Assembly (NCBI GenBank): GCA_964445435.1
Contig: CAYUKU010000001.1
Span: 44,384-108,383, forward strand
Direction of reading: 5' to 3'
Length of the DNA: 64,000 bases
Source of the DNA: an uncultured Gammaproteobacteria bacterium
GTDB lineage: Bacteria; Patescibacteriota; Microgenomatia; UBA10105; UBA927
This document shows, piece by piece, positions 110 through 59,382 of the stretch (position 1 is its first letter; every line of letters starts with the position of its first letter). A program made the translations under genes and the position numbers. The notes under the pieces were generated by a model. It saw nothing but the letters and a program-made list of their open reading frames with translations, did no database searches and was not told the DNA's origin.

Positions 110-1507
110 ATGGGGTCATCAGCCAAAACCACAAGATCATACCGGTGGATCCGGGCTATCGCCGCAGGTGTGGCATTTTTTTCACTGCTTATTCTTCTTG
201 TTATTGGTATATTTCGCAAATACTACGAAGGACGCATCTATCCGAACGTTACTATTGCAGGCGTACCATTTGGGGGACAGACAAGACTACAAGTCGCCCA
301 ATACTGGCAACAGAAAAACGAACCGTTTGGCAGTGCCCAATTTGAACTGAAATTCAAATCCACCATAGCCACGTTTTCGGGAAGCGATATTGAACTCGGA
401 TATGATGCTGATTTGTCCGCCACCCAAGCCTACCTGATCGGCCGCTCCGGAGGATTTTTAAGTAAGCTGAACGTCACATTCTTTCAGAAATCAGTGAATT
501 TAGAGCCGTATTTTCGATGGACGGAAAGCGTCGTTGATGAAACACTTGCGCAACTCGCATCTCAAATAGACATACCGGAGCAGGATGCGCTATTTCAGTT
601 TGCTGACGGAAAAGTTGTATCCTTCCGACCGTCAAAGACAGGCCAAAAACTTGACCAGGCTGAAGCCAAACGACGAATTCAGGAAGCATTCACAACCGTT
701 GCCCGGACGAACCAGCAGCGGGTGACCATTCTTTTACCGGTCGACACGGTAAAACCATCAACTGCCACAAATGACACGAACGCGTACGGCATAAAAGAAC
801 TCATCGGACGGGGCTATTCGGAATTCGCAGGGTCCATACCCGGACGCATTCACAATGTGGCACTGGCAGCCTCCCGTCTCAATGGAATCCTCATAAAACC
901 CGGCGAAGAATTTTCATTTAACAAGGCCATAGGTGATATTTCCGCAGCAACAGGGTATCAATCCGCGTATATTATTAAAGAGGGCAGGACGGTGTTGGGA
1001 GACGGTGGTGGCGTCTGCCAAGTCTCAAGCACGTTGTTTCGCGCGGCTTTGGACGCGGGGCTCCCGATTGTCGAACGTCATGCGCACGCATACCGGGTTC
1101 ATTATTACGAAGAAGGAGGGTACAAACCCGGCCTGGACGCTACAGTATTTAGTCCTTCCGTCGATTTACGAATAAAAAACAATACCCCGTCTTACATTCT
1201 CATCCAGACGAAAACGGATACAAAAAATCTGACCCTGACGTTTGAACTTTACGGAACCCGCGACGGGCGGAAAGCGGAAATTTTCAATCATGTGGTGTCA
1301 TCACAAACACCTCCTCCTCCCCCGTTATACCAGGATGATCCGACACTGAAAGCCGGCGTCGTCAAACAGGTCGACTGGGCAGCGTGGGGCGCCAAAGCCT
1401 CTTTTCAGTATAAAGTCACGCGAAACGGCGAAACGCTTGAAGACACCACCTTCTATTCAAACTTCCGCCCGTGGCAGGCGGTCTTCCTAAAAGGCACGGC
1501 GCCCTGA
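110..1507 (+). CDS. VanW-family protein with N-terminal membrane anchor
   Basis: N-terminal hydrophobic helix (IRAIAAGVAFFSLLILLVIGIF). The VanW-domain hallmark GDGGGVCQVSSTLFRAALDAGLP lies in the C-terminal half. Confidence 0.7.
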   Translation: MGSSAKTTRSYRWIRAIAAGVAFFSLLILLVIGIFRKYYEGRIYPNVTIAGVPFGGQTRLQVAQYWQQKNEPFGSAQFELKFKSTIATFSGSDIELGYDADLSATQAYLIGRSGGFLSKLNVTFFQKSVNLEPYFRWTESVVDETLAQLASQIDIPEQDALFQFADGKVVSFRPSKTGQKLDQAEAKRRIQEAFTTVARTNQQRVTILLPVDTVKPSTATNDTNAYGIKELIGRGYSEFAGSIPGRIHNVALAASRLNGILIKPGEEFSFNKAIGDISAATGYQSAYIIKEGRTVLGDGGGVCQVSSTLFRAALDAGLPIVERHAHAYRVHYYEEGGYKPGLDATVFSPSVDLRIKNNTPSYILIQTKTDTKNLTLTFELYGTRDGRKAEIFNHVVSSQTPPPPPLYQDDPTLKAGVVKQVDWAAWGAKASFQYKVTRNGETLEDTTFYSNFRPWQAVFLKGTAP

Positions 1508-1508
1508 T

Positions 1509-1925
1509 ATGAAAAAAGTGCTTGTCGGCGGCTGTTTCGATTTTATTCACTTCGGTCATATTTCGTTTCTCAAGCAGGCCAAAATGTATGGCGACTCGCT
1601 TGTCGTTGCGTTGGAATCCGATGAAAATGTGAAACGCGCAAAGGGTGAAACGCGGCCGATTCATTCGCAGGATAAACGGAAAATCATGCTCGAGTCCCTT
1701 TCATTTGTCGATGAGGTTATCAGCTTGCCTCCGATGCGAACCGACGAAGAGTATACGAATCTCGTGAGGGACGTGCATCCAGCCGTCATTGCGGTAACCG
1801 AGGACGATCCCATCATGGATAAGAAAAAGAGTCAGGCAAACAAGGTTGGGGCAACGCTCGTGGTTATTCCGAAAATCCATACACCGTCCACGTCTCAACT
1901 CGCCAAACTCCTGGGCCTCGAGTAA
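1509..1925 (+). CDS. cytidylyltransferase-like nucleotidyltransferase (TagD/RibL-like HxGH family)
   Basis: N-terminal GGCFDFIHFGHISFLKQAK matches the (T/H)xGH nucleotidyltransferase motif. The 138-aa size and the LVVALESDE...VDEVI pattern resemble glycerol-3-phosphate cytidylyltransferase / FAD synthase RibL. Confidence 0.55.
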   Translation: MKKVLVGGCFDFIHFGHISFLKQAKMYGDSLVVALESDENVKRAKGETRPIHSQDKRKIMLESLSFVDEVISLPPMRTDEEYTNLVRDVHPAVIAVTEDDPIMDKKKSQANKVGATLVVIPKIHTPSTSQLAKLLGLE

Positions 1926-1935
1926 AATAACTCCC

Positions 1936-2907
1936 ATGAAGATTCTCGCGATAGAAACAAGCTGCGATGAGACCGCGGCCGCGGTCGTTGAGGATGGAAC
2001 GAAAGTTCTATCCTCCATCGTGGCATCATCTGCGTCAATGCACGAGAAATACGGAGGCATCGTTCCTGAGATTGCGGCACGTGAACAACTCAAATGCATC
2101 ATGCCAACCGTCGAGGAAGCAGTCGCGCCTGTCGGCATTGATCACATCGACGCGCTTGCTGTAACAGTCGGGCCCGGCCTTATCGGATCGCTCCTCATCG
2201 GCGTAGAAACTGCCAAGACGATTTCATATATAACGGGCAAACCGCTTCTTCCGGTCAATCACGTTCTGGCGCACATGTACGCAAATTTTATAGAGAAAAT
2301 TCCAGAATTTCCCGCGATCTCTCTCGTTGTCTCAGGGGGACATACAGAACTGTATCTCATGAAGTCTGAAAAAGATCTTGAGTGGCTTGGCGGCACCCTC
2401 GATGACGCGGCCGGTGAAGCATTTGACAAAACAGCTCGACTTCTCGGATTCGGCCATGGCGGAGGTATAGCCATACAGCAAAACGCACGGGATAACGGCA
2501 TCGGCATCAAACTTCCCCGACCACTTCTCTACGACAACACACTGAACTTTTCTTTTTCCGGTCTCAAAACTGCCGTACTTCGGGAAATTGGCAAACAGAA
2601 AGAAAACAATAGTTTCGACAGACCAACAATTGAACAGGTAGCGTTTGAGGTACAGGAGGCAATCACTGATGTTTTGGCAGCAAAAACAAGACTAGCCGCC
2701 AAACAAAGCAATGCAAAAACCATACTTCTTTCTGGCGGAGTTGCCGCAAATCTTCGTCTTCGGGAAAAATTACCGGAGGCTGTAGCGCCGCCTGTTTCTT
2801 TGTGCACGGATAACGCGGTTTATATAGCCTCATACGCCTATTTTCGGGGCAAGAAAACTGATTGGCACGACATTAGCGCAGAGCCGGATCTTTCTGTTGA
2901 AGTATAA
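1936..2907 (+). CDS. tsaD: tRNA N6-adenosine threonylcarbamoyltransferase TsaD (Kae1/Gcp family)
   Basis: MKILAIETSCDETAAAVV start, HVLAHMYA and SGGVAANLRLRE motifs. The upstream ORF extension 1846-1935 is judged spurious because it overlaps the preceding gene. Confidence 0.9.
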   Translation: MKILAIETSCDETAAAVVEDGTKVLSSIVASSASMHEKYGGIVPEIAAREQLKCIMPTVEEAVAPVGIDHIDALAVTVGPGLIGSLLIGVETAKTISYITGKPLLPVNHVLAHMYANFIEKIPEFPAISLVVSGGHTELYLMKSEKDLEWLGGTLDDAAGEAFDKTARLLGFGHGGGIAIQQNARDNGIGIKLPRPLLYDNTLNFSFSGLKTAVLREIGKQKENNSFDRPTIEQVAFEVQEAITDVLAAKTRLAAKQSNAKTILLSGGVAANLRLREKLPEAVAPPVSLCTDNAVYIASYAYFRGKKTDWHDISAEPDLSVEV

Positions 2908-3400
2908 TCGCCTCTTCTTTGCACCAGGGAGAATAAACATCGTTTGTGTCAGCTGCTATTTCACGAAGAAATATCTTCCAGTCCATCCATTTCCAATCCT
3001 CAACTTCTTTTCTATTTGGATTGGGATCTTGGTCATACTGCCCAACAAGAATAGGACAAATTTCGTTTTCTACAATTCCGTTTCGGTCAGCTGCACGATA
3101 GCGGTACGGGGAGACCTCCTGTACATCAACGCCCTTAATACCCAATTCGTCTGTCAATCGTCTTTGGGCTGCGAGGACCGCAGACTCGCCCGGTGCAAGA
3201 TGGCCGCAAACGGTATTCGTCCATACACCGGGAAATGTTTTTTTTGAGAGGGCGCGTCGCGTTATGAGTATCTGTCTTTTGGAATTAAAGATAAAAAGTG
3301 AAAACGCGCGATGAAGCGGAGTATTTGTAGAATGGACCGTGTCCTTCGGCGCAGTGCCGATCTCCCGGTTATGTTCATCGACTAATACGACCAATTCCAT
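2873..3400 (-). CDS. idi: isopentenyl-diphosphate delta-isomerase, type 1 (Nudix fold)
   Basis: HRAFSLFIFN...ITRRALSKKTFPGVWTNTVCGHLAPGES...ENEICPILVG matches type-1 IDI including the catalytic Cys/Glu context. Convergent 35-nt overlap with the tsaD 3' end. Confidence 0.8.
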   Translation of the reverse strand: MELVVLVDEHNREIGTAPKDTVHSTNTPLHRAFSLFIFNSKRQILITRRALSKKTFPGVWTNTVCGHLAPGESAVLAAQRRLTDELGIKGVDVQEVSPYRYRAADRNGIVENEICPILVGQYDQDPNPNRKEVEDWKWMDWKIFLREIAADTNDVYSPWCKEEAIILQQKDPALR

Positions 3401-3401
3401 G

Positions 3402-3473
3402 TGGGCCCGCTTGGTGACGATCCAAGCGCCCCCATGTTATAAGCATGGTGCTCTACCGCTGAGCTACGGGCCC
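3402..3473 (-). tRNA. tRNA with anticodon UAU (tRNA-Ile, AUA-reading), 72 nt
   Basis: The reverse complement folds as a canonical cloverleaf. Acceptor GGGCCCG/CGGGCCC, D-arm GCTC-AGCGGTA-GAGC, anticodon stem CCATG/CATGG with loop CTTATAA (T33, anticodon TAT, A37), 5-nt variable loop, T-arm CTTGG-ATCGTCA-CCAAG, discriminator A, no encoded CCA. Confidence 0.75.
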
Positions 3474-3492
3474 GACAATAAATTATATCAAT

Positions 3493-3885
3493 TTACACCG
3501 CTTTTCTCACAATATGCCCCGCAACAACTCGAATTCCTATCAAAACACGCTCCTTTATCTCGGTGTCATAGACGCGGATTCCACAAGTACCGTGTCCGAA
3601 TCCTTTCTGATCGATATCACTTCTATTACTATCTTTCAGATATGGTTTGGTAAACTGTCGCAGTGGTAGGCCAAGCATGTCACTCCAGTACTTCATCTCC
3701 TTCAGAACGTTCATATCTTTATACAGATGAAGATATATTCGCAATTGATTCAAGGGCACCCGTAATCCTTTATGGATCCATTGCAGCGCAAACTGCATCA
3801 AGGTGGGATCTGTGTTACTTATGCTCAGCATATTGCGAGACCCTTTGTCGCCCTCCCCCCAATACAAAAAAAGTCCAGCTATCAA
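3493..3885 (-). CDS. LAGLIDADG-like homing endonuclease domain (downstream half of a split ORF pair)
   Basis: Starts on TTG in the -1 frame, overlapping the stop of the upstream HTH ORF. IAGLFLYWGEGDKG resembles a degenerate LAGLIDADG/LAGFIDGDG motif followed by a LYKD..VLKE helical region typical of that fold. Weak. Confidence 0.3.
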   Translation of the reverse strand: MIAGLFLYWGEGDKGSRNMLSISNTDPTLMQFALQWIHKGLRVPLNQLRIYLHLYKDMNVLKEMKYWSDMLGLPLRQFTKPYLKDSNRSDIDQKGFGHGTCGIRVYDTEIKERVLIGIRVVAGHIVRKAV

Positions 3886-4163
3886 TAGTCTTTGTGTGAT
3901 AAAGGGAGTAGGCTTCGAGCTTCCTCACTTCGATACTTATCTATCTTCATCTCTTGTTTTCTTCTCATTGTTTCTCTGAATTTTTCAATTCGTATCTCAC
4001 TTCGTCCCCGTAATGCGTTAATTTCTTCCTTTGTAAGAGGGCTATCGCGCAACCATATACTCAATGTGCTTTTGCCTACACCGAGGATCGATTTTATCTG
4101 GTTATAACTCTTCCGCTGGCGCCTTAAAATAAGGGCTTTACGACGGAGAAGTGTATGAGTCAT
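3882..4163 (-). CDS. resolvase/IS-type helix-turn-helix protein (upstream half of the split HTH + LAGLIDADG-like pair)
   Basis: SYNQIKSILGVGKSTLSIWLRD is a classic HTH. The ORF ends in TGA overlapping the TTG start of the downstream 130-aa ORF, so the two may be one frameshifted gene. Confidence 0.35.
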   Translation of the reverse strand: MTHTLLRRKALILRRQRKSYNQIKSILGVGKSTLSIWLRDSPLTKEEINALRGRSEIRIEKFRETMRRKQEMKIDKYRSEEARSLLPLSHKDY

Positions 4164-4225
4164 TTTGAACCAACAATGAATATTTTCTCAACAATAATTC
4201 CATTGTACGATAATGGAGAAAAGCA

Positions 4226-5623
4226 TCAAGCTCGAAGGAGAGATTCCATTTCCCCCTCAATATCATACGCGCGTTTTCTCGTTTTCCCGAAAATTATGTA
4301 TGCAAGTTTATCCATGCGCAGCAAATTTTCTGAAACAGTAATAACTCCTTCCCGTGTCGCTTTATCAAATAACACAGGTCGCAGCCGATCCTGGATCTGC
4401 CCAAACGTAAGGTGACCCAGGTGAGAAATATCGTAACTGTTATTGGAAAGTACGTTGGTGATGTACATGAAGTCCTTACCAAAAAGCTTGAGTGCCGTCG
4501 TATAGACAAACGTGCCGCCCGTGCTTCGCACGTTTGATTCCGTCACGAACAGTTGTCCGTTTCTGCCTGCGACAAAATCGACATCATAATATCCCCGATA
4601 CCCGGCAGCCGCGTACCGCTCTCCAATGAAAAATCCCGTATCTACCATCTGTGCCGCTATCCGGTCGCTCACCACCTCGTTGTGGATCTCCACGCCCTTG
4701 AAAATTCCCTCAGAGGTCATACGCATCCCGCAATAATAGAGAAACTCCACCCGTCCGTTTTTGAGGATTTTGAATTCCACATTCGGGCAACCACCACCTA
4801 TTGACGACTGTATCTGAATAAAATCTTCGACAATAATCGGAAATCTACTCCAATAGGCTTCCTTTTCAAGAATCTTCAGTATAGTTTGCTCGCATGCTAA
4901 GTAATCCTGCGGCAAATCTCCGGGGCGGAAAAGTAAAACTCCCATGCCGGCGTGCCCCTTGTTCGTCTTAATCACGACTCCGTTTTCCTTAATGTATCGT
5001 TTTGCCGCAATTTTGGCCGCATCTTCAACGCCGACACAAATAAGGCCTTCCGCCATTTGGAAATCCGGCTCTGCGTTTTGACTCTGCTGTGCTAATTGTC
5101 TTATACCTGACTTGCTCCCGTAAAAATTTACCGTCCACCCGTCTTCTTCTTCCGGCGCTTCCGGTGTGTAAATGGTAAGTCCGCGACTGCGAAGTTCACG
5201 CATGAGGTGAAGAAACTCCGGTGTCGTAGCGTAACTGACTACAGTCAGCCTTCTTGTGGAGTTTGCTATTTCCACAAGTCTTTTCATCATCGACTCGTCA
5301 TTGAGGATGTCATCACATAAGGCGCCCGTATGGTGCGTCATGGGAATAATCGTGATATGCGTATTGCCAAAAAGTCCCTGATAATACGAAAGGAATTGGT
5401 CGCTGACTCCCTGAGGACAAATGAAATAAACGTGATCATCCTCACCGCAAAACTGGAAAAGCCGCATATCCGCCAAAAAAACATTTTCCTGTATCTCGCT
5501 AACCCGGCCTTTTTTGTTTGACATTGCACTAATAAACGGCCACACGTCTTCCGACATGTTGAAGAAATACACAAGTTTTGATGGTAATTTCGACGCCCCT
5601 GAAGGACTGGAAGATATATCCAT
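4226..5623 (-). CDS. ATP-grasp superfamily protein (pre-ATP-grasp + ATP-grasp), function unknown
   Basis: Central KTNKGHAGMGVLLF, the later EDFIQIQSS...EFKIL and the C-terminal YYDVDFV..GQLFVTESNVR match the ATP-grasp nucleotide-binding and catalytic loops. 465 aa. Confidence 0.5.
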   Translation of the reverse strand: MDISSSPSGASKLPSKLVYFFNMSEDVWPFISAMSNKKGRVSEIQENVFLADMRLFQFCGEDDHVYFICPQGVSDQFLSYYQGLFGNTHITIIPMTHHTGALCDDILNDESMMKRLVEIANSTRRLTVVSYATTPEFLHLMRELRSRGLTIYTPEAPEEEDGWTVNFYGSKSGIRQLAQQSQNAEPDFQMAEGLICVGVEDAAKIAAKRYIKENGVVIKTNKGHAGMGVLLFRPGDLPQDYLACEQTILKILEKEAYWSRFPIIVEDFIQIQSSIGGGCPNVEFKILKNGRVEFLYYCGMRMTSEGIFKGVEIHNEVVSDRIAAQMVDTGFFIGERYAAAGYRGYYDVDFVAGRNGQLFVTESNVRSTGGTFVYTTALKLFGKDFMYITNVLSNNSYDISHLGHLTFGQIQDRLRPVLFDKATREGVITVSENLLRMDKLAYIIFGKTRKRAYDIEGEMESLLRA

Positions 5624-5688
5624 GCAGTTAGTATTTATTCCACCATATTAGGAGAATACCGCTTTTTGCATGTATGTAAAGAGGGAAA

Positions 5689-8037
5689 TTAAAGTCGCGC
5701 ACGATGCGCAATTTCCGCTTCCACTAATTCTTTTGATCTGCCGAACTTGAGGCGGGAAAGCTGAATGATCGCCTCGGCAACTTTCTGATTTTTCTCTGCG
5801 CTCACTTTTGCCATGTCTTTCGTTAAATCCATGCTAAAAGGTTTCACCGGCTCATTTCGGACACTCGTTTTTATGTAGGCGTTAAACTTATCAATATTGA
5901 TAAGGTCAGCTTCATTAAAAGTCGGCTGGAACTCGTGTTGGAGATAGTTGGCGTCCGTCACACCGACACGGAAGGAAACAACCGTTCCCACATTCCCGAA
6001 CACGGCGTTTTTCACTTCCTCTTCCATCTGTCCGATGAATTGATTGGCGACGATGAGGTTCAACCTATACTTACGGGCCTCGGAAAGAATCTGGGCAAAG
6101 TCAGGCGTTGCGAAATTCTGAAACTCGTCAACATAGAGATAAAAATCTCTGCGCTCGTTCTCCGGAATTTCCTGCCTACTCATGGCAGCGATAAGAATCC
6201 GGGGTACGAGAATAAGTCCTAAGAAGTTACTGTTTTCTTCGCCAATTTTTCCCTTCGCGAGATTCACGAGAAGAATTTTTCCGTCGTCCATCACTTTACG
6301 GAAATCAAAGGATGACTGTGATTGACCTATGATATTACGCATCAATTTATTCGTCACGAATCTTCCGAACTTAGACACAATGTAATCGAGAACTTCGGAT
6401 TTGTGAAAATCAGCAGTTTGCGCGATCTGATCGGTCCAGTACCGCCTGATAATCGGATCCTGAAGTTTAGGGAGAAGCTCCTGGACAAATGCGCTATCCG
6501 TAAGAACACGAACAACTTCAACGAATGTATTTCCCGGTTCGACCATGACAGTAAGCATCGCATTTCTAATAGCGTGCTCAAACCTCGGTCCGATGATTCC
6601 TGTTTTCATAGGATCGTACAGCTTATACATGAGGCCCACGATCGATGTCACGACGAAGTGCTTCTGCTCCTCGGTTTTTGCCTCGAGCATGTTTAATCCC
6701 ATTGGTCGCTCGATATCCGAGGGATCGAAATAAATAACATCTTCAGCGCGTGAGGCGGGCATCCGGGAGAGAACCCCGTCAATAAGATCGCCGTGAGGAT
6801 CGATAACGGCAATGCCTTTCCCCTCATTAATATCCTGGATAATCATTTCCTCAAGAAGTTGAGACTTTCCGGTACCTGTTTTCCCGATAACGTACATATG
6901 CCGCCGCCGGTCATCTTCCGCGATATAAATTGGCCGCTCGACACCACGATACCGGGATTTACCCAAAAACAACCCGCTCATGGGGATTTGGGAAGGCGCC
7001 GGTGCACGCTTCGCGTTAAGCCAATAAATATGTGCTGTTTCGATAGACTTATTTGGAAGGTGAAATACACTTGCTAGCTCATCGCTGTTCATAACGCTAA
7101 ACTGCCGAAACAACGGAATATTCATAACTGGGAAATACCGATAGATGAAGTCAATCATGAACAACTGTTTGAATGGCATTTTCACTTTCGTGAAATGATT
7201 ATGGTCGGATGAAAACTGGCTGAAACTGGTCAGAAGATTATCCAAATGCATCTGTGCATTTTCTCTCGTCTCTGCTGAAACAACACACCGTATAACGGCA
7301 TTGAAACCGGGTTTGCTTACTTTCTGTTCTATCGCCTCAAGAGTTTTGGGATCTACGGAAAAACTTGCTTTCTCTGGATTCGCCTCGTTCTTCTTCACTT
7401 TGGAAATATATGAACGGCCGGTGCCGCGCCATTTGTCATTCGCAGGCTGGATAAGAATTTGCACAGCAGCTGCTTCACCGGGGCGCATTTTCGCAAGAAC
7501 CGACGTAATGGAAGATAAGGGATCAGTCGGCAGATCACGGAAAATACGGATCGGCTGGTAATCTGCACCGCTTAAACACAGAGCCGCGAACGCTACTTTT
7601 CCTGTTTCCGAAAAGAGCGAATACTCCTCTACCTGACGGATATCAGCGCCCGGATATGCCCCATGAATCTGCTTTTCCACAAGATCGGTTAATTTCTTGG
7701 GAACCGCCACATAAAACCTGATATCCTCGGGTTTTGCCACGATTTCAAACGATAGATGTTCCTGCGGTTTCAGAAACGACCAAAAATCCCCGTGTGCGAT
7801 ACTATGTAAACTGGCAAACATCTGCTCTGCAGCGTCAATTTTGATTTCATTATCGCGAGGCACCGCTATCTGAAGGAGCACCGTTTCCAAAGAGTGCTCT
7901 TCCCGGTTGCGATACTTCCAGAAAAGAAACAGAATATATCCCACGAGGAATAAGCCCCCCACAAACAACACTAGAAGAATCAGGCTCACTCCGAGCATTT
8001 CCAACCGATACGTTATATCAATAAGTTGATCCTGCAT
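5689..8037 (-). CDS. TraD/VirD4-like type IV coupling protein ATPase (TraG-D_C family), membrane anchored
   Basis: N-terminal TM helix (LILLVLFVGGLFLVGYILFLFW). Walker A VIGKTGTGKSQLL, Walker B-like LYVDEFQNFA, and RKYRLNLIVANQFIGQM typical of the TraM-recognition (TraG/TraD C-terminal) domain. Confidence 0.6.
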   Translation of the reverse strand: MQDQLIDITYRLEMLGVSLILLVLFVGGLFLVGYILFLFWKYRNREEHSLETVLLQIAVPRDNEIKIDAAEQMFASLHSIAHGDFWSFLKPQEHLSFEIVAKPEDIRFYVAVPKKLTDLVEKQIHGAYPGADIRQVEEYSLFSETGKVAFAALCLSGADYQPIRIFRDLPTDPLSSITSVLAKMRPGEAAAVQILIQPANDKWRGTGRSYISKVKKNEANPEKASFSVDPKTLEAIEQKVSKPGFNAVIRCVVSAETRENAQMHLDNLLTSFSQFSSDHNHFTKVKMPFKQLFMIDFIYRYFPVMNIPLFRQFSVMNSDELASVFHLPNKSIETAHIYWLNAKRAPAPSQIPMSGLFLGKSRYRGVERPIYIAEDDRRRHMYVIGKTGTGKSQLLEEMIIQDINEGKGIAVIDPHGDLIDGVLSRMPASRAEDVIYFDPSDIERPMGLNMLEAKTEEQKHFVVTSIVGLMYKLYDPMKTGIIGPRFEHAIRNAMLTVMVEPGNTFVEVVRVLTDSAFVQELLPKLQDPIIRRYWTDQIAQTADFHKSEVLDYIVSKFGRFVTNKLMRNIIGQSQSSFDFRKVMDDGKILLVNLAKGKIGEENSNFLGLILVPRILIAAMSRQEIPENERRDFYLYVDEFQNFATPDFAQILSEARKYRLNLIVANQFIGQMEEEVKNAVFGNVGTVVSFRVGVTDANYLQHEFQPTFNEADLINIDKFNAYIKTSVRNEPVKPFSMDLTKDMAKVSAEKNQKVAEAIIQLSRLKFGRSKELVEAEIAHRARL

Positions 8038-8047
8038 ACATCCTCAA

Positions 8048-8506
8048 CTAGACTTTCACACGAATAAGAGTACTTCCCATTTTCTGAATACCGACATGAA
8101 GCTGCTTTAGCCTCTTCACGCACCATTCTGCAAGCCACCGCCAGGAGTCGTTCACGCTCTGGGTGAGTCCGCGGGCAATCTGGTCGTCAGAAATGGGAAG
8201 TGTAATGGTTGCCGTGGTAGCAACGGGAACACTTGCCGGAGCCGGCTTAACCCCCATCTGCGCGACCGGCTGGGGAATGGGAATAGTGGTTGGCTGCATG
8301 CGCACGCCTGCAGAGACGACTTCTTTCGGAAGTTCCATTTCACTGCCCGTCGCATCGATAAGTCCTTCTTTCGCGTCAATGGGAGCGCCCACCACCTCCT
8401 TGTTTCCCGATGGCGTTACAGGAATAGGTGACGCCGCAGGTTGAGCTGCGGAAACAATTTGGTCATCGGTTTGGTCGTTGGGAGTGGGCAGATTGGTCAT
8501 GTCCAT
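8048..8506 (-). CDS. hypothetical Pro/Ala-rich protein
   Basis: ORF in operon position between the 662-aa unknown and the coupling ATPase (10-nt gap). No recognisable domain. Confidence 0.35.
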   Translation of the reverse strand: MDMTNLPTPNDQTDDQIVSAAQPAASPIPVTPSGNKEVVGAPIDAKEGLIDATGSEMELPKEVVSAGVRMQPTTIPIPQPVAQMGVKPAPASVPVATTATITLPISDDQIARGLTQSVNDSWRWLAEWCVKRLKQLHVGIQKMGSTLIRVKV

Positions 8507-8512
8507 ATCATA

Positions 8513-10501
8513 TCATGAACCGTATGCAAATATGACGCCGTACATGGGCATAATCGTCGTTGCGGTTACCGTTTTTTTGTGTTTTTTGGTTTGCTTTTTG
8601 TTTGCCCCCGCTTTTGTCGTCTGCATACCCTGTTCCCGAATCATGGAAAGATGCCAGATAATCGCAAGAAGCAACCATTGGCCAAATTCCCGCTGTATAA
8701 GCCCTTCTGGGTGCCTTTCTCTTACGCGTGCAAGGAGACCAACTTCCTTCATGTTCTTCCCCTCTGTCCGCATATCCCCAGGCGCGGCGAGAAACGACTC
8801 GAGAGACTCCAATGTCGCGTGATAGCTCATAAGTTTCAATGTCATCCAGAGAGCAAGCGCAAGAGAAAATCGAGATATCTCATACCGCTCCCGTTTAATC
8901 GGCTCTGGTAAAAACGCACCCTCAGAAACATCCGGCGCACTGACAAGACGTTGCGTTTCTCCAAAAAGCATCACAAGAGACTGTTCTACTCGTTTCTTCT
9001 CACGAGCAATCGCTTCTTTCTGATCCTTTACCGGAAGCGCGTCTATACCTTCCAAAAATCTGATGGACCGGACAAATGTCTGCACGTCTACACTCTCTGA
9101 TACCTCAACCAGTTTGGGATTCGTTTCTGCTTCCGGCTGTTTACGTATTCCTTCACTCATCATCATAAAAAACAAGTCGAAAACATGTGCGCCAACCTGG
9201 TCCGTTTCGTTTGCGTTACCCTTTGACGTTACTGCATCCTTCCCTCCAAGCCTTTCCTCTGCGGGCATCAGAAACACACCTTCGCCCAACAATCCTTCAT
9301 GCGGCGTCAAAGTGAAGGTGTCTAGCGCGAAAAGGGCTGCGGGAACCCCGACACTTGAAGACTCTTGAACCAGTGCCGTGGCGAGGCTACGTATCTCATT
9401 GGCTTCTTCAAACGTTTCCCACATCTCCCGCACCTCAATATATAAGTGTTCTGATTGTTCTTCTGAAACTCCCAGGACATCTCGTACCGTTTGCGTCCAA
9501 ACTTCTACCTTTTCCGGCTCCGTAAGAAGAGAAAATCCGGGAGAAGCAGGTTCCGTGGTGATTGCGAGCATAACCGTCAGGTTTCCCTTGTGGATCACAT
9601 CTTCCAAGTTTCTGGTGTACGTTGGAGCTTCGTATGACACACTTGACTCCTCAACGATCTCTGGAGCGTGCTGCCGTTTCATATAGTCAACAACGCCGAC
9701 AATCGTCTCCCGCGTGTCATCCACAATGTTGTATGCCACCACTTCTGCTGTCTCGGAAGAAAGTGCGATAACCCCATATACGGCTGCCGCTAATCCTTCG
9801 CGGACATCATCCTCTGCTATCATATGATCTAGCGCTATAGACGCCATTTCCGCAACCTGTCGTTCACGCTCCCTTAAGATGAGCGGGAAAACCGATACAT
9901 CCCGAGATAGGCGCGCTAGATACTCCGCTCCCTCGTCCGTTGCAGCGACGGTTTCTTTGGCTTCTTGGAGAATCTCCTCTGGAGTAACGGTCCGGAAGAA
10001 AAGAAGCGGCTTTTCGAAATTATCGCTTTCAGATACGTCGGCACCGCCTTTCACGCCGAGTCCCCGAAAAAAATCACCAAGAGTTTCATCGTTTCCGTGA
10101 AATTCAACCGCAAGCGCCTGAATCGTGTTCCCTTCGCCCCTGCTGTAGAGATATATATAATTTCTTCCGTATCCCAAATCCGGACTTGCAACTGCAGCCA
10201 TCTCTATGGAATCATCGTTCATCATGGCTTTCTCTGCTGCCAAAACACGATCAAGCCTATCAGCACCCACGTCATCGGGATCGGTCAATTCTTCGATTGT
10301 TTTTCCACCGCTGTCCGTCCATCTTCCTTCTTCATTAATCTCGTAATCGAAAGGGATAAGCGTTTGCTTGAGGATAAACTCGTGATCGTGTGCTACTGCG
10401 TCTTTCGCAAGCGCCCTGGAAACCACGTCGAGCGATCTGCCGTTATCGAGCATTTCCTCCAGATAATTTTTTTCGTTTTGCGGATTCCATTCGTGACTCA
10501 T
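8513..10501 (-). CDS. large acidic hypothetical protein (662 aa)
   Basis: Long uninterrupted ORF, co-oriented and nearly contiguous with the downstream genes. No recognisable motif. Confidence 0.4.
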   Translation of the reverse strand: MSHEWNPQNEKNYLEEMLDNGRSLDVVSRALAKDAVAHDHEFILKQTLIPFDYEINEEGRWTDSGGKTIEELTDPDDVGADRLDRVLAAEKAMMNDDSIEMAAVASPDLGYGRNYIYLYSRGEGNTIQALAVEFHGNDETLGDFFRGLGVKGGADVSESDNFEKPLLFFRTVTPEEILQEAKETVAATDEGAEYLARLSRDVSVFPLILRERERQVAEMASIALDHMIAEDDVREGLAAAVYGVIALSSETAEVVAYNIVDDTRETIVGVVDYMKRQHAPEIVEESSVSYEAPTYTRNLEDVIHKGNLTVMLAITTEPASPGFSLLTEPEKVEVWTQTVRDVLGVSEEQSEHLYIEVREMWETFEEANEIRSLATALVQESSSVGVPAALFALDTFTLTPHEGLLGEGVFLMPAEERLGGKDAVTSKGNANETDQVGAHVFDLFFMMMSEGIRKQPEAETNPKLVEVSESVDVQTFVRSIRFLEGIDALPVKDQKEAIAREKKRVEQSLVMLFGETQRLVSAPDVSEGAFLPEPIKRERYEISRFSLALALWMTLKLMSYHATLESLESFLAAPGDMRTEGKNMKEVGLLARVRERHPEGLIQREFGQWLLLAIIWHLSMIREQGMQTTKAGANKKQTKKHKKTVTATTIMPMYGVIFAYGS

Positions 10502-10506
10502 AAAAA

Positions 10507-10523
10507 AACTTCTCGAATCGAGA
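10507..10523 (-). terminator. intrinsic terminator-like hairpin followed by a T7 run
   Basis: On the minus strand, CTTCTCG-ATT-CGAGAAG (7-bp stem) is followed immediately by TTTTTTT and then the ATG of the 662-aa ORF. Sits 118 nt downstream of the pduO-type gene. Confidence 0.45.
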
Positions 10524-10640
10524 AGTTGGCTTTGGCCTCTCCTTTGACTCGAAGGATACGCGTATCTGAAACCTGCGACCGGACTATCACCGTTGCGGTA
10601 CAGTTCCCGAGTTTCACGGGATTCGGAGTTTCGGATATGA

Positions 10641-11192
10641 CTATTTTTGGGTACGTTCCCGAGGAATACCGGACCAAACCGTTTCCTCGATATGATTGTT
10701 CTTATTTATAAATCTCGCAAGCATAAAAAACAAGTCCGATAACCGGTTGAGATATTTAATGATTTGAGGATCGACCTGTTGTCGCTGAGCCAAGGCAACG
10801 ACCTGCCGCTCTACGCGTCGCGCTATACTTCTGGTGACATGAATATGAGCGGCTTGCGGTGATCCGCCCGGGAGGATGAAATTGGCAAGCGGTGGTAAGC
10901 TTTTTTCCATCGCATCAATCTCCACCTCCATTTCGGTGACGCGGGTAGGAAGAACGGACAAATCAGCTTTCCAACCGGCAAGACTTCCTCCTACTGTAAA
11001 AAGGTCTGACTGGATTTTCACGAAAAGATCGCGAAGATGGTCAAATTTCGTTTCCGAGACAACGAGTCCCACCCAACTGTTGAGCTCATCCATTGACCCG
11101 TATGCATCGACTAACTCTTCGCATTTAAGAACGCGCTTGCCACCGAAGAGGCTCGTTTTTCCGGCATCGCCGGTACGGGTGTAAATCGGCAT
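10641..11192 (-). CDS. ATP:cob(I)alamin adenosyltransferase, PduO-type
   Basis: MPIYTRTGDAGKTSLFGG...DAYGSMDELNS is the signature N-terminus of PduO/MMAB-type adenosyltransferases. Confidence 0.85.
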   Translation of the reverse strand: MPIYTRTGDAGKTSLFGGKRVLKCEELVDAYGSMDELNSWVGLVVSETKFDHLRDLFVKIQSDLFTVGGSLAGWKADLSVLPTRVTEMEVEIDAMEKSLPPLANFILPGGSPQAAHIHVTRSIARRVERQVVALAQRQQVDPQIIKYLNRLSDLFFMLARFINKNNHIEETVWSGIPRERTQK

Positions 11193-11198
11193 AGAGTC

Positions 11199-13628
11199 CT
11201 AACACTCTGAGTATCCGCAGCTGTAGCATTTCTTGCAGGACTCTTCAAATACAAGACTCCCCTCCCCGCAGCTCGGACACAGATCGACGGTAACCATGCG
11301 TTTTTCCGTCAAAAGCATTTGCTGTGCTGGCACAGTCATCGGCTTTTCTGCCGGCTCCACTTGCGGTGCGTCCGTGTGGACAGTATGACCGTTCGTATGT
11401 CCATTTGCCTGTGCAGGCTTGGCATCGGTATTAATGGCAACTACGTCTTCCAAACGATGTTTCGTGAAAAATCCAAAATGCCGATCTATGACTTTTGCAA
11501 CCCCGTCCGGCAGACTTCGAACCCTGTTTTCACCAAAACCCATACTTCGCGCACCACCAATACCGATAAGCTCTGCTGCTATCTTATGAGCCCGTTCGAT
11601 AGCTGGGATGGGCGAGGCCATTCGGAGGGTTAGAGATATAAGCCGACCCATCGCCTCAGCCATTGCCGTCACATCACTCCCCGCTTTTCCGACGTTAATA
11701 AATACCTCAAGAGGTCGGTTGCCACCATTCGTATTAATGGTCACGTACGCCTGACCGACCGGGGTTTCTACCTGGTAGGTAGAACCGTGGACTACCATAG
11801 GTCTCGGTTTTACTTCGGGTACCGCTGGCTCTGCCGGCTTGGCAACTTCCTCTTTTTTTGGTTCTTCTTTCCGTTCCAATACGCCCTGCCTACTGCCCTC
11901 TCTCATGTAGGTAATTCCCTTACACCCTTGTTCATATGCCAACGTGTACAGGCGCTTCACGTCTTCTACCGTGTGCGTATTGGGTGCATTAACGGTTTTA
12001 CTTATGGACGCATCAACGTACTTCTGGATGGTAGCCTGCACGAAGACGTGATCTTCGGGTGTCAGGTCATTTGCGGATACGAACCATGCTGGCCGCTCTT
12101 CCTTCGTGGGTTCCCGTCCGCTGGTTTTCTTGAAATCTTCATACCATGCTTCGTACAGCGGATGTCTCAAAATATGCTCTCCCAGCCTGCTTCTTCGTAT
12201 GAACTCGAATTCATACACGGGCTCAATACCGCTTGATACGCCGGCCAGAAGCGATGTCGTTCCCGTCGGCGCCTGTTGAAGGATAACGCTGTTTCGCACG
12301 CCGTACTTTTTAATTTTCTTCTTTATCCTCTCTGGAAGTTGTTTGATGAAGTACGCCTCCAGATGTTTTTTGATTTCGATTTTTGGAAAAGCACCTTTTT
12401 CCTTGGCAATGTCGGCTGAAGCCTCATACGCCGCATCGCGGATAGTGCGGTAAATTTTGTCGATAACCGGCAGGCTTTCGGGCGATCCGTACCGGAGCTT
12501 CATCTTAATCAGTGCATCGCCCAGCCCCATGGTGCCAAGACCAATCCGACGTTCTCCCTGCTGCTGTACTTTTCGTATTTCGTCAAAAACGTAGAAATCC
12601 GCGTCGATCACGTCATCCTGAAACCGTACACCGATTTTGGCAACCTCTGCCAGGCGGTCATAATCCATTTCACCCTTGTCGTTCACGAGTGCAGCGACAT
12701 TTATGGAACACAGGTTGCATACCCCCCAGCTGGGAAGCCCTTCTTCACCACACGGATTTACGCAGTTTACGTACTCGAAATAGTAATTATTAAACCATTT
12801 GTTATAGCGCTCCATAAATACGACCCCGGGCTCCGCGCTTCTCCACGCGGCCTGTGCGATAAGATCCCACAGCGCCCGGGCTTTGAGCGTCTTATGGACC
12901 ACCGTTTTCTTGCCCATCGCAATCCAGTTGGGAAGATATCCATCCCATTTGGTGTCATAGTCAGGATCCGTCTTATCCGGAAACACGAGATTCCAGTCTG
13001 CATCGTTTTTCACCGCGTCCATAAATGCATCAGATACACAGACGGAAAGATTGGCTCCGTTTATCCGCGAAAGATCCTGTTTGACGGTGATAAATTCCTC
13101 GATATCCGGATGCCAATCCCACAACATAAGCATGAGCGCGCCGCGACGGCTACCACCTTGCTGGATAATATCTTTCGTCGCAACGGAAAAAAGCTCCGCC
13201 CAATTGCATGGACCGGAGGAAAATCCGTTTACCTTCGTAACCCGTGCCCCGCGTGGTCGAAGACTCGAAAGATTAATCCCCACTCCTCCACCGCGCGACA
13301 TGATTTCCACCATTTGGGAAAGCGTTTTGAGAATTCCCTGCCTGGAATCATGGGGACTTGGTATGACAAAACAATTGTAAAAGGTTACTTTGTATCCTGT
13401 TCCTGCGCCTGAAAGAATCCGACCCCCCGGTACAAACACGAAGTCCTGCATTGCCCCATAAAACTTATCCTCCCACTCCTGCCGCTTGGCTTTCGGTTCG
13501 ACTTGTGCAACGGCGTGAGCAACCCTTCGCCACATTTCCTCGGGAGTTTTCTCAATGGGAGCACCCTTTTCGTCTTTGACGGCGTATCTGTCTGCAAAAA
13601 CGTTTTGTCGGATTCCTGTTAATTCCAT
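11199..13628 (-). CDS. nrdJ: ribonucleoside-diphosphate/triphosphate reductase, class II (adenosylcobalamin-dependent)
   Basis: 809 aa. NCFV, CNLCSIN and SCVNPCGE active-site regions. C-terminal Zn-ribbon CPSCGEGSLVFEESCKKCYSCGYSEC. Sits in an nrdR-nrdJ-adenosyltransferase operon. Confidence 0.85.
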   Translation of the reverse strand: MELTGIRQNVFADRYAVKDEKGAPIEKTPEEMWRRVAHAVAQVEPKAKRQEWEDKFYGAMQDFVFVPGGRILSGAGTGYKVTFYNCFVIPSPHDSRQGILKTLSQMVEIMSRGGGVGINLSSLRPRGARVTKVNGFSSGPCNWAELFSVATKDIIQQGGSRRGALMLMLWDWHPDIEEFITVKQDLSRINGANLSVCVSDAFMDAVKNDADWNLVFPDKTDPDYDTKWDGYLPNWIAMGKKTVVHKTLKARALWDLIAQAAWRSAEPGVVFMERYNKWFNNYYFEYVNCVNPCGEEGLPSWGVCNLCSINVAALVNDKGEMDYDRLAEVAKIGVRFQDDVIDADFYVFDEIRKVQQQGERRIGLGTMGLGDALIKMKLRYGSPESLPVIDKIYRTIRDAAYEASADIAKEKGAFPKIEIKKHLEAYFIKQLPERIKKKIKKYGVRNSVILQQAPTGTTSLLAGVSSGIEPVYEFEFIRRSRLGEHILRHPLYEAWYEDFKKTSGREPTKEERPAWFVSANDLTPEDHVFVQATIQKYVDASISKTVNAPNTHTVEDVKRLYTLAYEQGCKGITYMREGSRQGVLERKEEPKKEEVAKPAEPAVPEVKPRPMVVHGSTYQVETPVGQAYVTINTNGGNRPLEVFINVGKAGSDVTAMAEAMGRLISLTLRMASPIPAIERAHKIAAELIGIGGARSMGFGENRVRSLPDGVAKVIDRHFGFFTKHRLEDVVAINTDAKPAQANGHTNGHTVHTDAPQVEPAEKPMTVPAQQMLLTEKRMVTVDLCPSCGEGSLVFEESCKKCYSCGYSEC

Positions 13629-13650
13629 AAAACGTAAAAAGATAAAATTT

Positions 13651-14097
13651 TTATAAAAGTTTTTTTACTTCTCTCTCGAAATCTTCTATATCAACAAATT
13701 GTCGAAATACGCTTGCGAACCGTATGTAAGCTATCTTGTCCAATTTTTTGAGTCTCTTGGCGACCAGCTCTCCAATTCTTTTGCTCGGAACTTCCGTCGT
13801 GTCCCCGCTAATCAGTTCCCGTTCTACCTCATTAACAATTCTGTCTATGTCTTCTGCTTTTATGGTTGTTTTCCCGCTTGCTCTCCACAAACCCCTTCGC
13901 AATTTCTCACGGTCGAATGTCTCCCTGCGTTCATCTTTTTTTATAACCGTAATCGGAACGTTTTCTACCCGTTCATATGTGGTAAACCGCTTCTCGCATT
14001 TGGAACAGTTCCTGCGCCTTCGTGTCACCGCCAAATCTTCGCTGTCACGCGTTTCCAATACATCGGTATTTTCAAAGTTGCAATACGGACACTTCAT
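13651..14097 (-). CDS. nrdR: transcriptional repressor NrdR
   Basis: MKCPYCNFENTDVLETRDSED...RRRRNCSKCEKRFTTYE Zn-ribbon plus ATP-cone. 22 nt upstream of nrdJ. Confidence 0.9.
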   Translation of the reverse strand: MKCPYCNFENTDVLETRDSEDLAVTRRRRNCSKCEKRFTTYERVENVPITVIKKDERRETFDREKLRRGLWRASGKTTIKAEDIDRIVNEVERELISGDTTEVPSKRIGELVAKRLKKLDKIAYIRFASVFRQFVDIEDFEREVKKLL

Positions 14098-24392: not shown

Positions 24393-24995
24393 TTATCCTG
24401 AAACGAACCGTTTTTCGACCTCGTTCCAGTTCACGACATTCCACCATGCTCTAATGTAATCCGCCCGCATGTTTTGATACTTAAGGTAGTATGCGTGTTC
24501 CCAGACGTCCAATCCAAGAATGGGAGTCTTCCCTTCCATAACAGGACTATCCTGATTTGGCGTGTCCATGATGTCTAATTTTCCTCCTGATACTACAAGC
24601 CAAACCCATCCGCTTCCGAATCGTCCCATCCCGGCAGTACTAAACTTCTCCTGAAACCCCTGGATACTGCCAAACGTCGAACTTAGTGCATCTTTTAACG
24701 TACCTGCCGGTTCTTTTTGTGCATTCGGCGCCATCACCTGCCAGAAAAGGCTATGATTTGCGTGACCTCCGCCGTTATTTCGGACCTTAGTACGGACGGT
24801 TTCAGGAATCAGTGAAAGGTCAGCTATCAACTGCTCAACGGGCATGCGCAACAAATCTTCCTGACCCGCAAGGGCATCATTGAGATTTTTCACATACGCA
24901 GCATGGTGTTTTCCGTGATGAATCTGCATCGTGCGTTCGTCGATATACGGTTCAAGTGCATTTGCCGCATACGGCAATTCGGGAAGAGTAAACAT
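24393..24995 (-). CDS. sodA: Fe/Mn superoxide dismutase
   Basis: [31 protein letters not shown]...DVWEHAYYL canonical metal ligands. Confidence 0.9.
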
Positions 24996-25083
24996 ACGAA
25001 ACCTCCTTTGGGATAAACATTGTACGCTAGCCTACATTATTATATACCATGCAGAAAAGCCACCCGATCGGTATAATAGAGGG

Positions 25084-32700: not shown

Positions 32701-33459
32701 ATGACATTTCTTCACGCGATACTCCTGTCTTTTGTCGAGGGAATCACAGAATTTTTGCCGGTCTCATCGACCGGCCACCTGATTCTCACAAGCCAGATCC
32801 TCAATATCCCCCAAACAGAATTTACGAAATCCTTCGAATTATTTATTCAGCTTGGCGCTATCCTCGCCGTCTTATGGCTGTATGGGAAAAAACTTCTCGT
32901 GGAGAAACTGCTCCTGGTAAATATCGGCATCTCCTTTCTCCCCACTGCGTTAGCAGGATTTCTCCTCTATCCCTTCATCAAAGGAACCCTGCTGGGAAAC
33001 AGTTCGGTCGTGTCGTGGTCACTTATCGTGGGCGGTGTCGTTCTTATCGCAATAGAACGTTTCGTAGAAAAAAATAAAACTCCAGATATGAAGTCTTTTT
33101 CCCAGAAAGAAGCGTTTCTCATCGGCTGTGCTCAGGCAGTCTCAGTTATCCCCGGCGTATCGCGGGCAGGAGCGACCATTGCAGGAGCGCTTCTTCTGGG
33201 AGTCCCGCGCCAAACGGCTGTTGAATATTCGTTTCTGCTTGCTCTTCCCACCATGGCAGCGGCCGTCGGATTCGACATTCTTAGAACCGCCTGGCAGTTT
33301 TCCGCGTCCGACATGTCAATTCTTGCAGTCGGATTTCTCGGCGCGTTTATTACGGCACTCTTTACTATCCGAATATTTACGAATTTCGTGAAAGCGCACT
33401 CGTTTACCTTTTTTGGCATATATAGAATCCTGGTTGGAATTCTGTTTTTATTTGCATGA
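32701..33459 (+). CDS. uppP: undecaprenyl-diphosphatase (BacA/UppP)
   Basis: MTFLHAILLSFVEGITEFLPVSSTGHL and later PGVSRAGATI motifs. Confidence 0.9.
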   Translation: MTFLHAILLSFVEGITEFLPVSSTGHLILTSQILNIPQTEFTKSFELFIQLGAILAVLWLYGKKLLVEKLLLVNIGISFLPTALAGFLLYPFIKGTLLGNSSVVSWSLIVGGVVLIAIERFVEKNKTPDMKSFSQKEAFLIGCAQAVSVIPGVSRAGATIAGALLLGVPRQTAVEYSFLLALPTMAAAVGFDILRTAWQFSASDMSILAVGFLGAFITALFTIRIFTNFVKAHSFTFFGIYRILVGILFLFA

Positions 33460-53995: not shown

Positions 53996-54158
53996 ACTGT
54001 AATCTATATCACACTAAAGCAAGTAAATAAAACAGTTTTGTCCGAGAAACGGGAATTTTCCGACACATTGACTAGTGACTTACCTAGAATATCCAGAATT
54101 TACCACCAAAGAAATTAATCGATTTCTCAACTTTTAGTCAAAGCAAGATGCCAATCAT

Positions 54159-54486: not shown

Positions 54487-54543
54487 ATCATTAGTTTAAT
54501 GGGAAATTGCCCTTTTGCCTAATTTGCTTCATTCGAAAAATGG

Positions 54544-55013: not shown

Positions 55014-55109
55014 ATCTTTGGCTCCACCTCATAGATATGTTCCGTAACCGCGTGATTGAGATAAGCATACCACTCGTCAATCTCAAAACACTGTTTGAAA
55101 CGTTTCACA

Positions 55110-55721: not shown

Positions 55722-55992
55722 ACATCAGTTAACTTGTAATTCCCTTACCCGTATTTTTTTCACGTCGCCTATAATGGTGTTTTCATCATACTCCTGTGGA
55801 CGAACATTGATAATAAGACCGATATTTTCTGGCTCATGAAATAGCTCTTCTGCGTATCTAAATCTATGGCCAAATGCCGTTGAAAGAGATACGGGCTTAC
55901 CTGATTGTTAACCACCTTTAACCACCTTGGAGGTGAAATATTAGGTAGCCTATTAAGACAAAGTCAATCAGGTACTAAACCAAAGACAAAAC

Positions 55993-59379: not shown

Positions 59380-59382
59380 AAT

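Follow-up and report, generated by a model that had tools for sequence, protein, structure and literature searches.

Does a lone gene for a coupling ATPase, placed beside a tRNA gene, mark the residue of a mobile element, or can it belong to the ordinary chromosome? The question is raised by a locus at 3401-10527 of a 64-kb stretch (the window) of contig CAYUKU010000001.1, in which a 782-aa ATPase resembling the type IV coupling proteins (T4CPs) VirD4 and TraD is encoded together with a 152-aa protein, a 662-aa protein and a 465-aa ATP-grasp protein, between a tRNA-Ile(UAU) gene and the genes nrdR-nrdJ-pduO. A first-pass annotation of this DNA had left two readings, a degraded integrative or conjugative element (ICE) and a coupling-ATPase homolog that had been co-opted; the second is supported in part, its general idea agreeing with a published survey of Patescibacteria (PMC12102498) and its suggested link to DNA uptake being speculative, and the first is rejected. 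We are highly confident that the locus is a conserved core module and not the remnant of a mobile element, and the region is an ordinary, vertically inherited stretch of the chromosome of Candidatus Gottesmanbacteria (Patescibacteria, for which Candidate Phyla Radiation, CPR, is another name). Copies of the ATPase that are identical or nearly so carry the name Candidatus Gottesmanbacteria or Patescibacteria at their sources. The locus belongs, as a regular member, to a Patescibacteria family that is known but uncharacterised. As to what it does, the best overall explanation, to which we give about an even chance, is that the 152-aa protein and the ATPase form a conserved module that serves as the coupling or energising ATPase of a distant type IV secretion system (T4SS).

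Conservation of the ATPase and its small partner

More than 7,900 homologs of the ATPase were found by word-sharing, the best 120 listed all being full length and at least 79% identical, and the family comprises 6,336 clusters at 50% identity (E<1e-30). When one genome per species was scanned, family members turned up in every CPR class sampled, namely in Levy-, Curtiss-, Woese-, Roizman-, Davies-, Shapiro-, Dojka-, Magasanik-, Doudna-, Uhr-, Berkel-, Falkow- and Staskawiczbacteria as well as in WWE3, Saccharibacteria and Peribacteria. In a neighbour-joining (NJ) tree of 86 sequences, which is distance-based, the ATPases group roughly by CPR taxonomy, and three second copies that adjoin a first one fall into a separate sister clade. 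Second, divergent DUF8128-type ATPases lie beside or near the first at 1128-6163 of locus L046, 9741-17193 of L059 and 9965-18593 of L064; no paralog of the ATPase is present in the 64-kb window. It should be kept in mind that the taxon labels of metagenome-assembled genomes in the collection are partly unreliable, loci of Patescibacteria type being labelled 'uncultured Gammaproteobacteria', for example.

The gene order is shared by three related genomes, in which it reads nrdR-nrdJ-pduO-[632-700 aa]-[145-151 aa]-[782-787 aa]-[ATP-grasp]-tRNA-Ile(UAU)-idi(-tsaD). Identity to the orthologs in these relatives is 93/87/79% for the ATPase, 93/84/82% for NrdJ and 96/91/85% for NrdR, and it is lower for TsaD (66/67%) and Idi (63/65/67%). 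By these figures the ATPase is under very strong purifying selection, on a par with NrdJ and NrdR. Conserved core genes on the flanks had been named in the first-pass annotation as an observation that would speak against a mobile element, and the flanks are indeed of this kind.

The second conserved feature is a small protein encoded directly upstream. In most of 85 CPR loci an open reading frame (ORF) of ~90-280 aa (typically 120-190) precedes the ATPase gene on the same strand; it ends between -11 and +30 nt from the ATPase ORF in about half of the loci and within ~190 nt of it in about 60. In the window this position is taken by the 152-aa protein, whose gene is separated from that of the ATPase by 10 nt, and the two are probably co-translated. 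Members of its sequence family occur at 16 Microgenomates loci, directly upstream of the ATPase gene in all of them, and iterative searches with hidden Markov models built from the family stayed inside Microgenomates. Parcubacteria, Saccharibacteria and two other groups have small-protein families of their own at the same position. A common origin of these proteins was considered and rejected, as hhalign probabilities among the four families tested were below 1%; given this lack of profile-profile similarity, what is conserved about the small partner is its position and architecture, and homology is not demonstrable at the level of sequence. The 152-aa protein (20% Pro+Ala, isoelectric point (pI) 5.3) evolves fast and is disordered over much of its length; it has a disordered front rich in proline, alanine and glutamine and a conserved C-terminal helix, with a conserved C-terminal motif LP[IL]T..G..S.RWLxEW..R..K (~nt 8102-8200). 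Searches of Pfam, NCBIfam, PDB profiles, PHROGs and PADLOC gave no match to it.

Other genes recur near the ATPase gene across CPR loci: an XerC/D-type recombinase at 18 loci, DnaX at 12, DivIC/FtsB at 10 and SpoIID at 6, with GyrB/GyrA recurring beside it in Saccharibacteria. The recombinase is convergently oriented and downstream in its 18 loci, which are mostly from Microgenomates, and the 10 occurrences of DivIC/FtsB are nearby. At 15 Parcubacteria loci (within L050-L080) a family of ~211 aa without a Pfam match is encoded directly 3' of the ATPase gene on the same strand, often followed by dnaX.

Domain architecture and relation to known ATPases

The earlier description of the 782-aa protein as a VirD4/TraD-like coupling ATPase is borne out by profile searches, in which three Pfam T4CP families, TrwB_AAD_bind (PF10412; 32.3 bits), T4SS-DNA_transf (PF02534; 30.9 bits) and TraG-D_C (PF12696; 25.8 bits), all score above their gathering cut-offs. 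The Pfam cut-off for DUF87 is passed as well. A precomputed Pfam table, which covers the exact window protein and all of its top homologs, assigns PF26449 (DUF8128) to the N-terminal part, and the window ATPase has the layout of this N-domain followed by T4CP-type domains within ~780-1050 aa. At the sequence and profile level T4CPs (TrwB, DotL) come first and HerA follows, and nothing else was detected.

An AlphaFold2 (AF2) model of the ATPase, built on a 42-sequence alignment, has a predicted local distance difference test score (pLDDT) of 90.3, and the N-domain alone reaches 94. It begins with one long helix (aa 2-50), which coincides with the sole Kyte-Doolittle segment of transmembrane (TM) grade (aa 8-42, maximum 2.85). 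The sequence KYRNR follows this TM helix and, by the positive-inside rule, would place the remainder of the protein in the cytoplasm. In the P-loop NTPase domain the Walker A motif is GKTGTGKS (aa 385-392, nt 6862-6885) and the Walker B motif YVDEF, with D637 and E638; these two acidic residues and G385, G388, G390 and K391 of Walker A are invariant in 42 homologs. The model predicts an all-alpha insertion in this domain (~aa 456-585). Structural alignments extend over 364 residues of TrwB and 388 of Cag-beta. The C-terminal helical hairpin carries the consensus LSRLKYGR.R..VE.EI, in which S761 is near-invariant. When the whole model was submitted to Foldseek, VirB4 chains ranked first (850-900 aligned columns) and TrwB next. 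Judged from the model, the ATPase would join a VirB4-type overall layout to a VirD4-type motor signature, and would differ from canonical VirD4 in its membrane-proximal part.

Comparison with characterised proteins makes this mosaic explicit. Like VirD4, the window ATPase has a P-loop NTPase of the FtsK/HerA superfamily with both Walker motifs. Unlike T4CPs of the VirD4/TrwB type (R388 TrwB, DotL, Cag-beta), which have two TM helices directly before the NTPase, it has one; it also has an extra VirB4-like domain of ~300 aa between helix and motor, is encoded on the chromosome without relaxase or T4SS neighbours in the window, is conserved at a housekeeping level, and scores 57 bits against a cut-off of 366 for the NCBIfam T4CP equivalog. 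The likeness to VirB4 (R388 TrwK; T. pseudethanolicus VirB4) lies in the N-domain, which is predicted to have the VirB4 N-terminal fold. Against an identification as VirB4, searches of Pfam, NCBIfam and PDB profiles found no VirB4/TraC/CagE sequence signature, the sole NCBIfam VirB4 match being a 37-residue P-loop (17 versus 590 bits), and VirB3, VirB6 and VirB8 are not adjacent, the neighbours being the 152-aa, 662-aa and ATP-grasp proteins, the tRNA, nrd and idi. Patescibacteria also have a separate, bona fide VirB4 (PMC12102498). The T4CP homologues reported from Patescibacteria in that study are of the same family, and the window protein has the same Pfam set, DUF8128 included. FtsK and SpoIIIE belong to the same ATPase superfamily and are likewise membrane-anchored, and an XerC/D-type recombinase is found near some loci of the window family; however, the window ATPase has neither the PF01580 motor, nor the 4-TM N-domain, nor the gamma winged helix of those proteins.

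Candidate role of the pair in type IV secretion

Homologs outside the phylum link the family to conjugation genes. Searches with tblastn revealed homologs of full architecture, at 20-31% identity, on plasmids of Bacillus, Streptomyces, haloarchaea and Sulfolobus and in Bacillus phages. One of them, encoded on a 65-kb B. subtilis plasmid (CP120602.1, P5635_00045), is 26% identical over 700 aa including the N-domain (E 4e-49) and lies within a conjugation operon, upstream of TcpD/TcpE-like genes. Unlike the window gene, it is plasmid-borne and part of a complete transfer operon, and its product is a 913-aa protein annotated as DUF87. The 65-kb B. subtilis plasmids of this type look like members of the pLS20 family. 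Distant full-length homologs were also seen in the large Bacillus phages G (gp156), SP-10, SBSphiC and vB_BsuM-Goe26, and PHROG 5156, a family of unassigned function, matches the ATPase at 3e-93. The occurrence of a homolog in a conjugation operon agrees with the proposal that the T4SS of Patescibacteria derives from monoderm conjugation machinery (PMC12102498).

In that survey, which took in 3,035 Patescibacteria genomes, Quinonero-Coronel et al. (2025) found VirD4-like homologs in 2,918 of them, 5,713 copies in all (PMC12102498). Wang et al. described in S. epibionticum an essential T4SS without a recognisable coupling protein (PMC10633639), so that the coupling role in this system is vacant. 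Their Tables S1 and S2 list two homologs of the family, SEML1_0142 (1019 aa) and SEML1_0293 (921 aa). The first was scored ES/ES/ES, with insertions falling from 114 in the input to 11/11/9, and is flagged as core and Patescibacteria-enriched (Table S1); SEML1_0141, a 139-aa protein encoded 12 nt upstream of it, was scored GD/ES/ES, with insertions falling from 9 to 0, and is essential in class II (PMC10633639). SEML1_0293 was scored non-essential, and the T4SS genes SEML1_0006-0019 are essential too (PMC10633639). The order around SEML1_0142, which is 0138 YifB(-), 0140, 0141, 0142, 0143(-), 0144(-) and 0145 GyrB, is matched gene for gene in four Saccharibacteria loci (L066, L069, L071, L072) and in a complete genome (L091), and the large protein in these loci bears DUF8128 and falls in the same tree clade as the window ATPase. 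It is likely, then, that the window ATPase and the essential SEML1_0142 are members of one ortholog group. Given the shared synteny and tree clade, we infer that the essential pair SEML1_0141/0142 is the counterpart of the window module, and that the S. epibionticum T4CP homolog called not essential by Quinonero-Coronel et al. (PMC12102498) is the other paralog. The transposon-sequencing evidence comes from another class, Saccharimonadia. As far as we have found, neither study (PMC12102498, PMC10633639) describes the VirB4-like N-domain, the small upstream ORF or the probable identity of the module with the essential pair.

A scenario that would explain these observations is that the ATPase is assembled into a ring on the cytoplasmic side of the membrane, as are TrwB, DotL and Cag-beta, and acts as the coupling or energising ATPase of the chromosomal, MPF-FATA-derived T4SS of Patescibacteria, whose virB4 cluster would lie elsewhere in the genome; from the literature, a T4SS in this genome is plausible. 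The VirB4-like N-domain may be the part that docks onto the T4SS. The small protein could be an adaptor or regulator of the ATPase, in analogy to CagZ with Cag-beta (PDB 8dol, by its title) or to the adaptors of DotL, where a small protein is likewise encoded beside the coupling ATPase and presumed to bind it, although it has no similarity to them in sequence or fold. The 662-aa protein might be a lineage-specific accessory or a candidate substrate, and the ATP-grasp ligase and a frameshifted gene with a helix-turn-helix (HTH) motif would be unrelated later insertions between the ATPase gene and the tRNA. We favor coupling to a T4SS because of the homolog in a conjugation operon, the VirB4-type domain and the vacant coupling role in an essential T4SS. 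Taken by itself, the proposition that the ATPase works with a T4SS falls, in our estimate, slightly short of an even chance.

Several observations weigh against a role in secretion. No T4SS gene is present within the window. In the published survey only 148 of the 5,713 T4CP homologs are located close to virB4, hardly any relaxases occur, and T4CP homologs are present in more genomes than VirB4, which was found in 2,417 of the 3,035 (PMC12102498). SEML1_0142 was called essential already at T0, which makes it one of just 61 genes of class I, and the majority of T4SS genes belong to class II (PMC10633639). This may mean that its role is more basic. The assignment of the window ATPase to its ortholog group was made on synteny, gene lengths, annotation and the NJ tree, not on the SEML1 sequence. 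The motor domain is structurally as near to HerA and to the C-terminal domain of VirB4 as to TrwB, and the N-terminal membrane part, one helix and a 300-aa domain, is unlike that of canonical VirD4.

The rival that draws on these points is that the small protein and the DUF8128 ATPase are an essential housekeeping translocase or remodelling motor, independent of any T4SS and exapted early from a conjugative coupling protein, for example for handling DNA or protein at the membrane during replication or division. We think this unlikely, though it has to be taken seriously. It is favoured by the scarcity of linkage to virB4, by a distribution wider than that of VirB4 and by class I essentiality, and it is in line with the housekeeping level of conservation, with the recurrent XerC/D-type, DnaX, DivIC/FtsB, SpoIID and GyrB/GyrA neighbours, and with the view of Quinonero-Coronel et al. 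that exaptation is a possibility (PMC12102498). Those neighbours, however, are mostly on the opposite strand or vary between classes and may reflect lineage synteny only, one TM helix per subunit would be unlikely to make a channel alone, and conjugation operons are where the nearest homologs of informative context are encoded. The same neighbours had raised the idea that the ATPase substitutes for FtsK; this was rejected, as S. epibionticum has a canonical, essential FtsK with PF01580 and the gamma domain (SEML1_0096; PMC10633639) beside SEML1_0142. A search with the E. coli FtsK motor as query, which is a weak test, found nothing in the window or in the 85 loci. A more specific version, which we regard as somewhat less likely again, holds that the pair is a phylum-wide essential membrane motor without need of a T4SS, a mosaic of VirB4 N-domain and VirD4 motor that arose from a monoderm conjugative coupling protein and was exapted; in that case the diverging small partner, joined in Gottesmanbacteria by the 662-aa protein, would set the target of the motor.

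The distinction matters, as much of bacterial diversity falls within Patescibacteria, whose T4SS is the first that has been reported as essential to the organism bearing it. If the secretion reading is correct, the DUF8128 ATPase with its small upstream partner is a specific candidate for the missing coupling protein of this T4SS, and the hypothesis is directly testable in the tractable S. epibionticum. If, instead, the module is T4SS-independent, it would amount to a new, phylum-specific essential machine.

The remaining genes and the mobile-element question

The five genes grouped as one element in the first-pass annotation do not behave as a unit: only the pair of the 152-aa and 782-aa proteins is phylum-wide, the 662-aa protein is class-specific, and the genes for the ATP-grasp and HTH proteins were inserted later. 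The 662-aa protein (pI 4.7; 114 D+E versus 67 K+R) has only 9 homologs, at 37-53% identity; among the loci it is detectable in the six of Gottesmanbacteria type (L001-L006) alone, and it is the fastest-evolving gene of the neighbourhood, with 51% identity in the genome in which the ATPase has 93%. In an alignment its N-terminal domain is conserved, the middle varies, and the C-terminal WLLxAIIWxLxMIREQG...GVIFA is invariant. A profile search of this protein and of the 152-aa protein had been proposed; for the 662-aa protein, too, Pfam, NCBIfam, PHROGs, PADLOC and PDB profile searches returned no family match.

On the other side of the ATPase gene, a tRNA-Ile gene with the rare anticodon UAU lies within 2.5 kb at ~27 Microgenomates and Dojkabacteria loci (among L002-L048), and in many of these it is 5-100 nt downstream of the ATPase gene; in most Microgenomates it follows directly. 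Since this arrangement runs across Microgenomates and Dojkabacteria, the tRNA is an old, ancestral neighbour. Which genes fill the slot between the two varies with the lineage, two unrelated ATP-grasp genes and the HTH gene being among them. In the window the slot holds the gene for a 465-aa protein whose ATP-grasp assignment was upheld by PF18604 PreATP-grasp (29.6 bits versus a cut-off of 27.5, 1e-6) and by a best PDB match to 8ynd, 'ATP-grasp peptide ligase' (4.6e-7, residues 60-433); PGM1 and BesA match as well, and NCBIfam equivalog cut-offs are not reached. Judged by these matches, it is probably a PGM1/BesA-like ATP-grasp amide/peptide ligase. A PGM1-like ATP-grasp occurs only in the closest relatives (84% and 56% identity), and in L006 an unrelated, Ddl-type ATP-grasp occupies the same slot. 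The ATP-grasp gene is a lineage-specific later insertion between the ATPase gene and the tRNA.

We also considered that the 662-, 152-, 782- and 465-aa proteins function as one unit in Gottesmanbacteria, the ligase modifying or building a peptide handled by the ATPase, or modifying the small or the 662-aa protein. The shared order and strand in the closest relatives would fit, as would the presence in L006 of another ATP-grasp at the same position. This is nevertheless improbable: the 65-nt gap between the ATPase and ATP-grasp genes contains a weak hairpin as well as a promoter-like site, no other lineage has the ligase, the tRNA coming directly next in them, and as the two ATP-grasp genes belong to unrelated families an insertion hotspot fits better than a four-gene unit.

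The two short ORFs next to the tRNA are a frameshifted copy of a single gene for an HTH protein of ~230 aa, the frames joining near 3882-3900. Intact relatives of 230 and 236 aa, which L079 and L044 carry in unrelated contexts, match the two different frames in an alignment. The protein carries an N-terminal HTH and the motif 'LYWAEGDK', and gives only weak HTH matches. These ORFs had been labelled as resembling a homing endonuclease gene; neither a LAGLIDADG nor any other endonuclease model of Pfam, NCBIfam, PHROGs or PDB matches 3493-4163 or the intact relatives, and the label could not be substantiated. The gene is missing at this position in L002-L004 and L006, and the insertion is private to this genome and the only plausibly mobile piece of the region.

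A defence ATPase of the HerA or MADS type is very improbable, since the matches are confined to the shared P-loop domain, no nuclease, Sir2 or methylase partner is adjacent, and the gene is universal, slow-evolving and syntenic with housekeeping genes, its S. epibionticum counterpart being essential. To the reading as an ICE whose insertion at the tRNA was followed by loss of the T4SS and relaxase genes we give next to no chance: a T4CP-type gene beside a tRNA without other transfer genes, a frameshifted and sporadically distributed HTH gene next to that tRNA and lineage-dependent contents of the slot could all be read in its favor, but the synteny is conserved in related genomes, the ATPase is under purifying selection equal to that on NrdJ and is distributed phylum-wide in congruence with taxonomy, the adjacency to the tRNA is ancestral with the genes on its 5' side, and the usual marks of an element are absent. 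As the first-pass annotation had stated, other transfer genes are lacking; a Pfam scan of ~54 ORFs of the window found no domain of a T4SS, a relaxase or an integrase. As a check, direct repeats of the tRNA 3' end, as att sites, had been suggested, and for these, as for any other att-like pair, only short chance matches were present in 2800-11300. No anomaly of GC content or skew was seen over 3-11 kb, the sole deviant part of the window being 54-64 kb. Integrative elements usually target the 3' end of a tRNA gene, and the cluster stands on the 5' side of this one. For annotation in general, it follows that a lone T4CP-like gene beside a tRNA in a CPR genome is no evidence of a mobile element.

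Table 1. Features of the locus and their positions in the 64-kb window
Feature	Position	Strand	Remarks
idi (flank)	2873-3400		tsaD beyond idi on the same side
tRNA-Ile, anticodon TAT (UAU)	3401-3473	minus	
Short ORF, 130 aa	3493-3885	minus	
Short ORF, 93 aa	3882-4163	minus	weak HTH_23
ATP-grasp gene, 465 aa	4226-5623	minus	
T4CP-like ATPase gene, 782 aa	5689-8037	minus	centre of the module
C-terminal helical hairpin, aa 751-781	5695..5787	minus	AF2 helices 751-765, 769-781
P-loop NTPase domain, aa 356-740	5818..6972	minus	
DUF8128 domain, aa 52-345, alpha/beta	7003..7884	minus	predicted VirB4 N-terminal domain fold
Single N-terminal TM helix, ~aa 15-41	7915..7995	minus	only Kyte-Doolittle window >=1.6
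Small-protein gene, 152 aa	8048-8506	minus	
Acidic-protein gene, 662 aa	8513-10501	minus	
Terminator-like hairpin and T-run, 9-bp stem	10527-10507	minus	consensus match only
pduO-nrdJ-nrdR (flank)	10641-14097		

The placing of genes, tRNA and hairpin in the first-pass annotation is confirmed throughout (Table 1), and all features of 3401-10527 are on the minus strand, with 6 nt between the genes for the 662-aa and 152-aa proteins. The hairpin follows the nrdR-nrdJ-pduO genes and stands 6 nt before the start codon of the 662-aa gene; it marks where the upstream operon ends and is not the boundary of an element. Its stem overlaps the expected position of the ribosome-binding site of the 662-aa gene, and besides terminating the nrd-pduO transcript it could affect initiation of translation of this gene.

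Housekeeping and transport proteins are encoded in the remainder of the window, along with a defence island at 54000-64000, in which GC content is 0.38-0.42 as compared with ~0.48 elsewhere in the window. Its genes, all on the minus strand (56141-56896, 56893-59379, 59383-62463 and 62469-63623), encode a PD-(D/E)XK nuclease, a GmrSD-type restriction enzyme, the HsdR subunit of a type I restriction system and Shedu SduA, and this island is the part of the window that truly looks horizontally acquired. Two class A penicillin-binding proteins (transglycosylase and transpeptidase) are encoded in tandem at 24931-27315 and 27372-29705. A second, unrelated ATP-grasp gene, glutathione-synthetase-like, lies at 33456-34313 and adjoins queA and a gene for a pyridoxal-phosphate-dependent enzyme (34295-35779).

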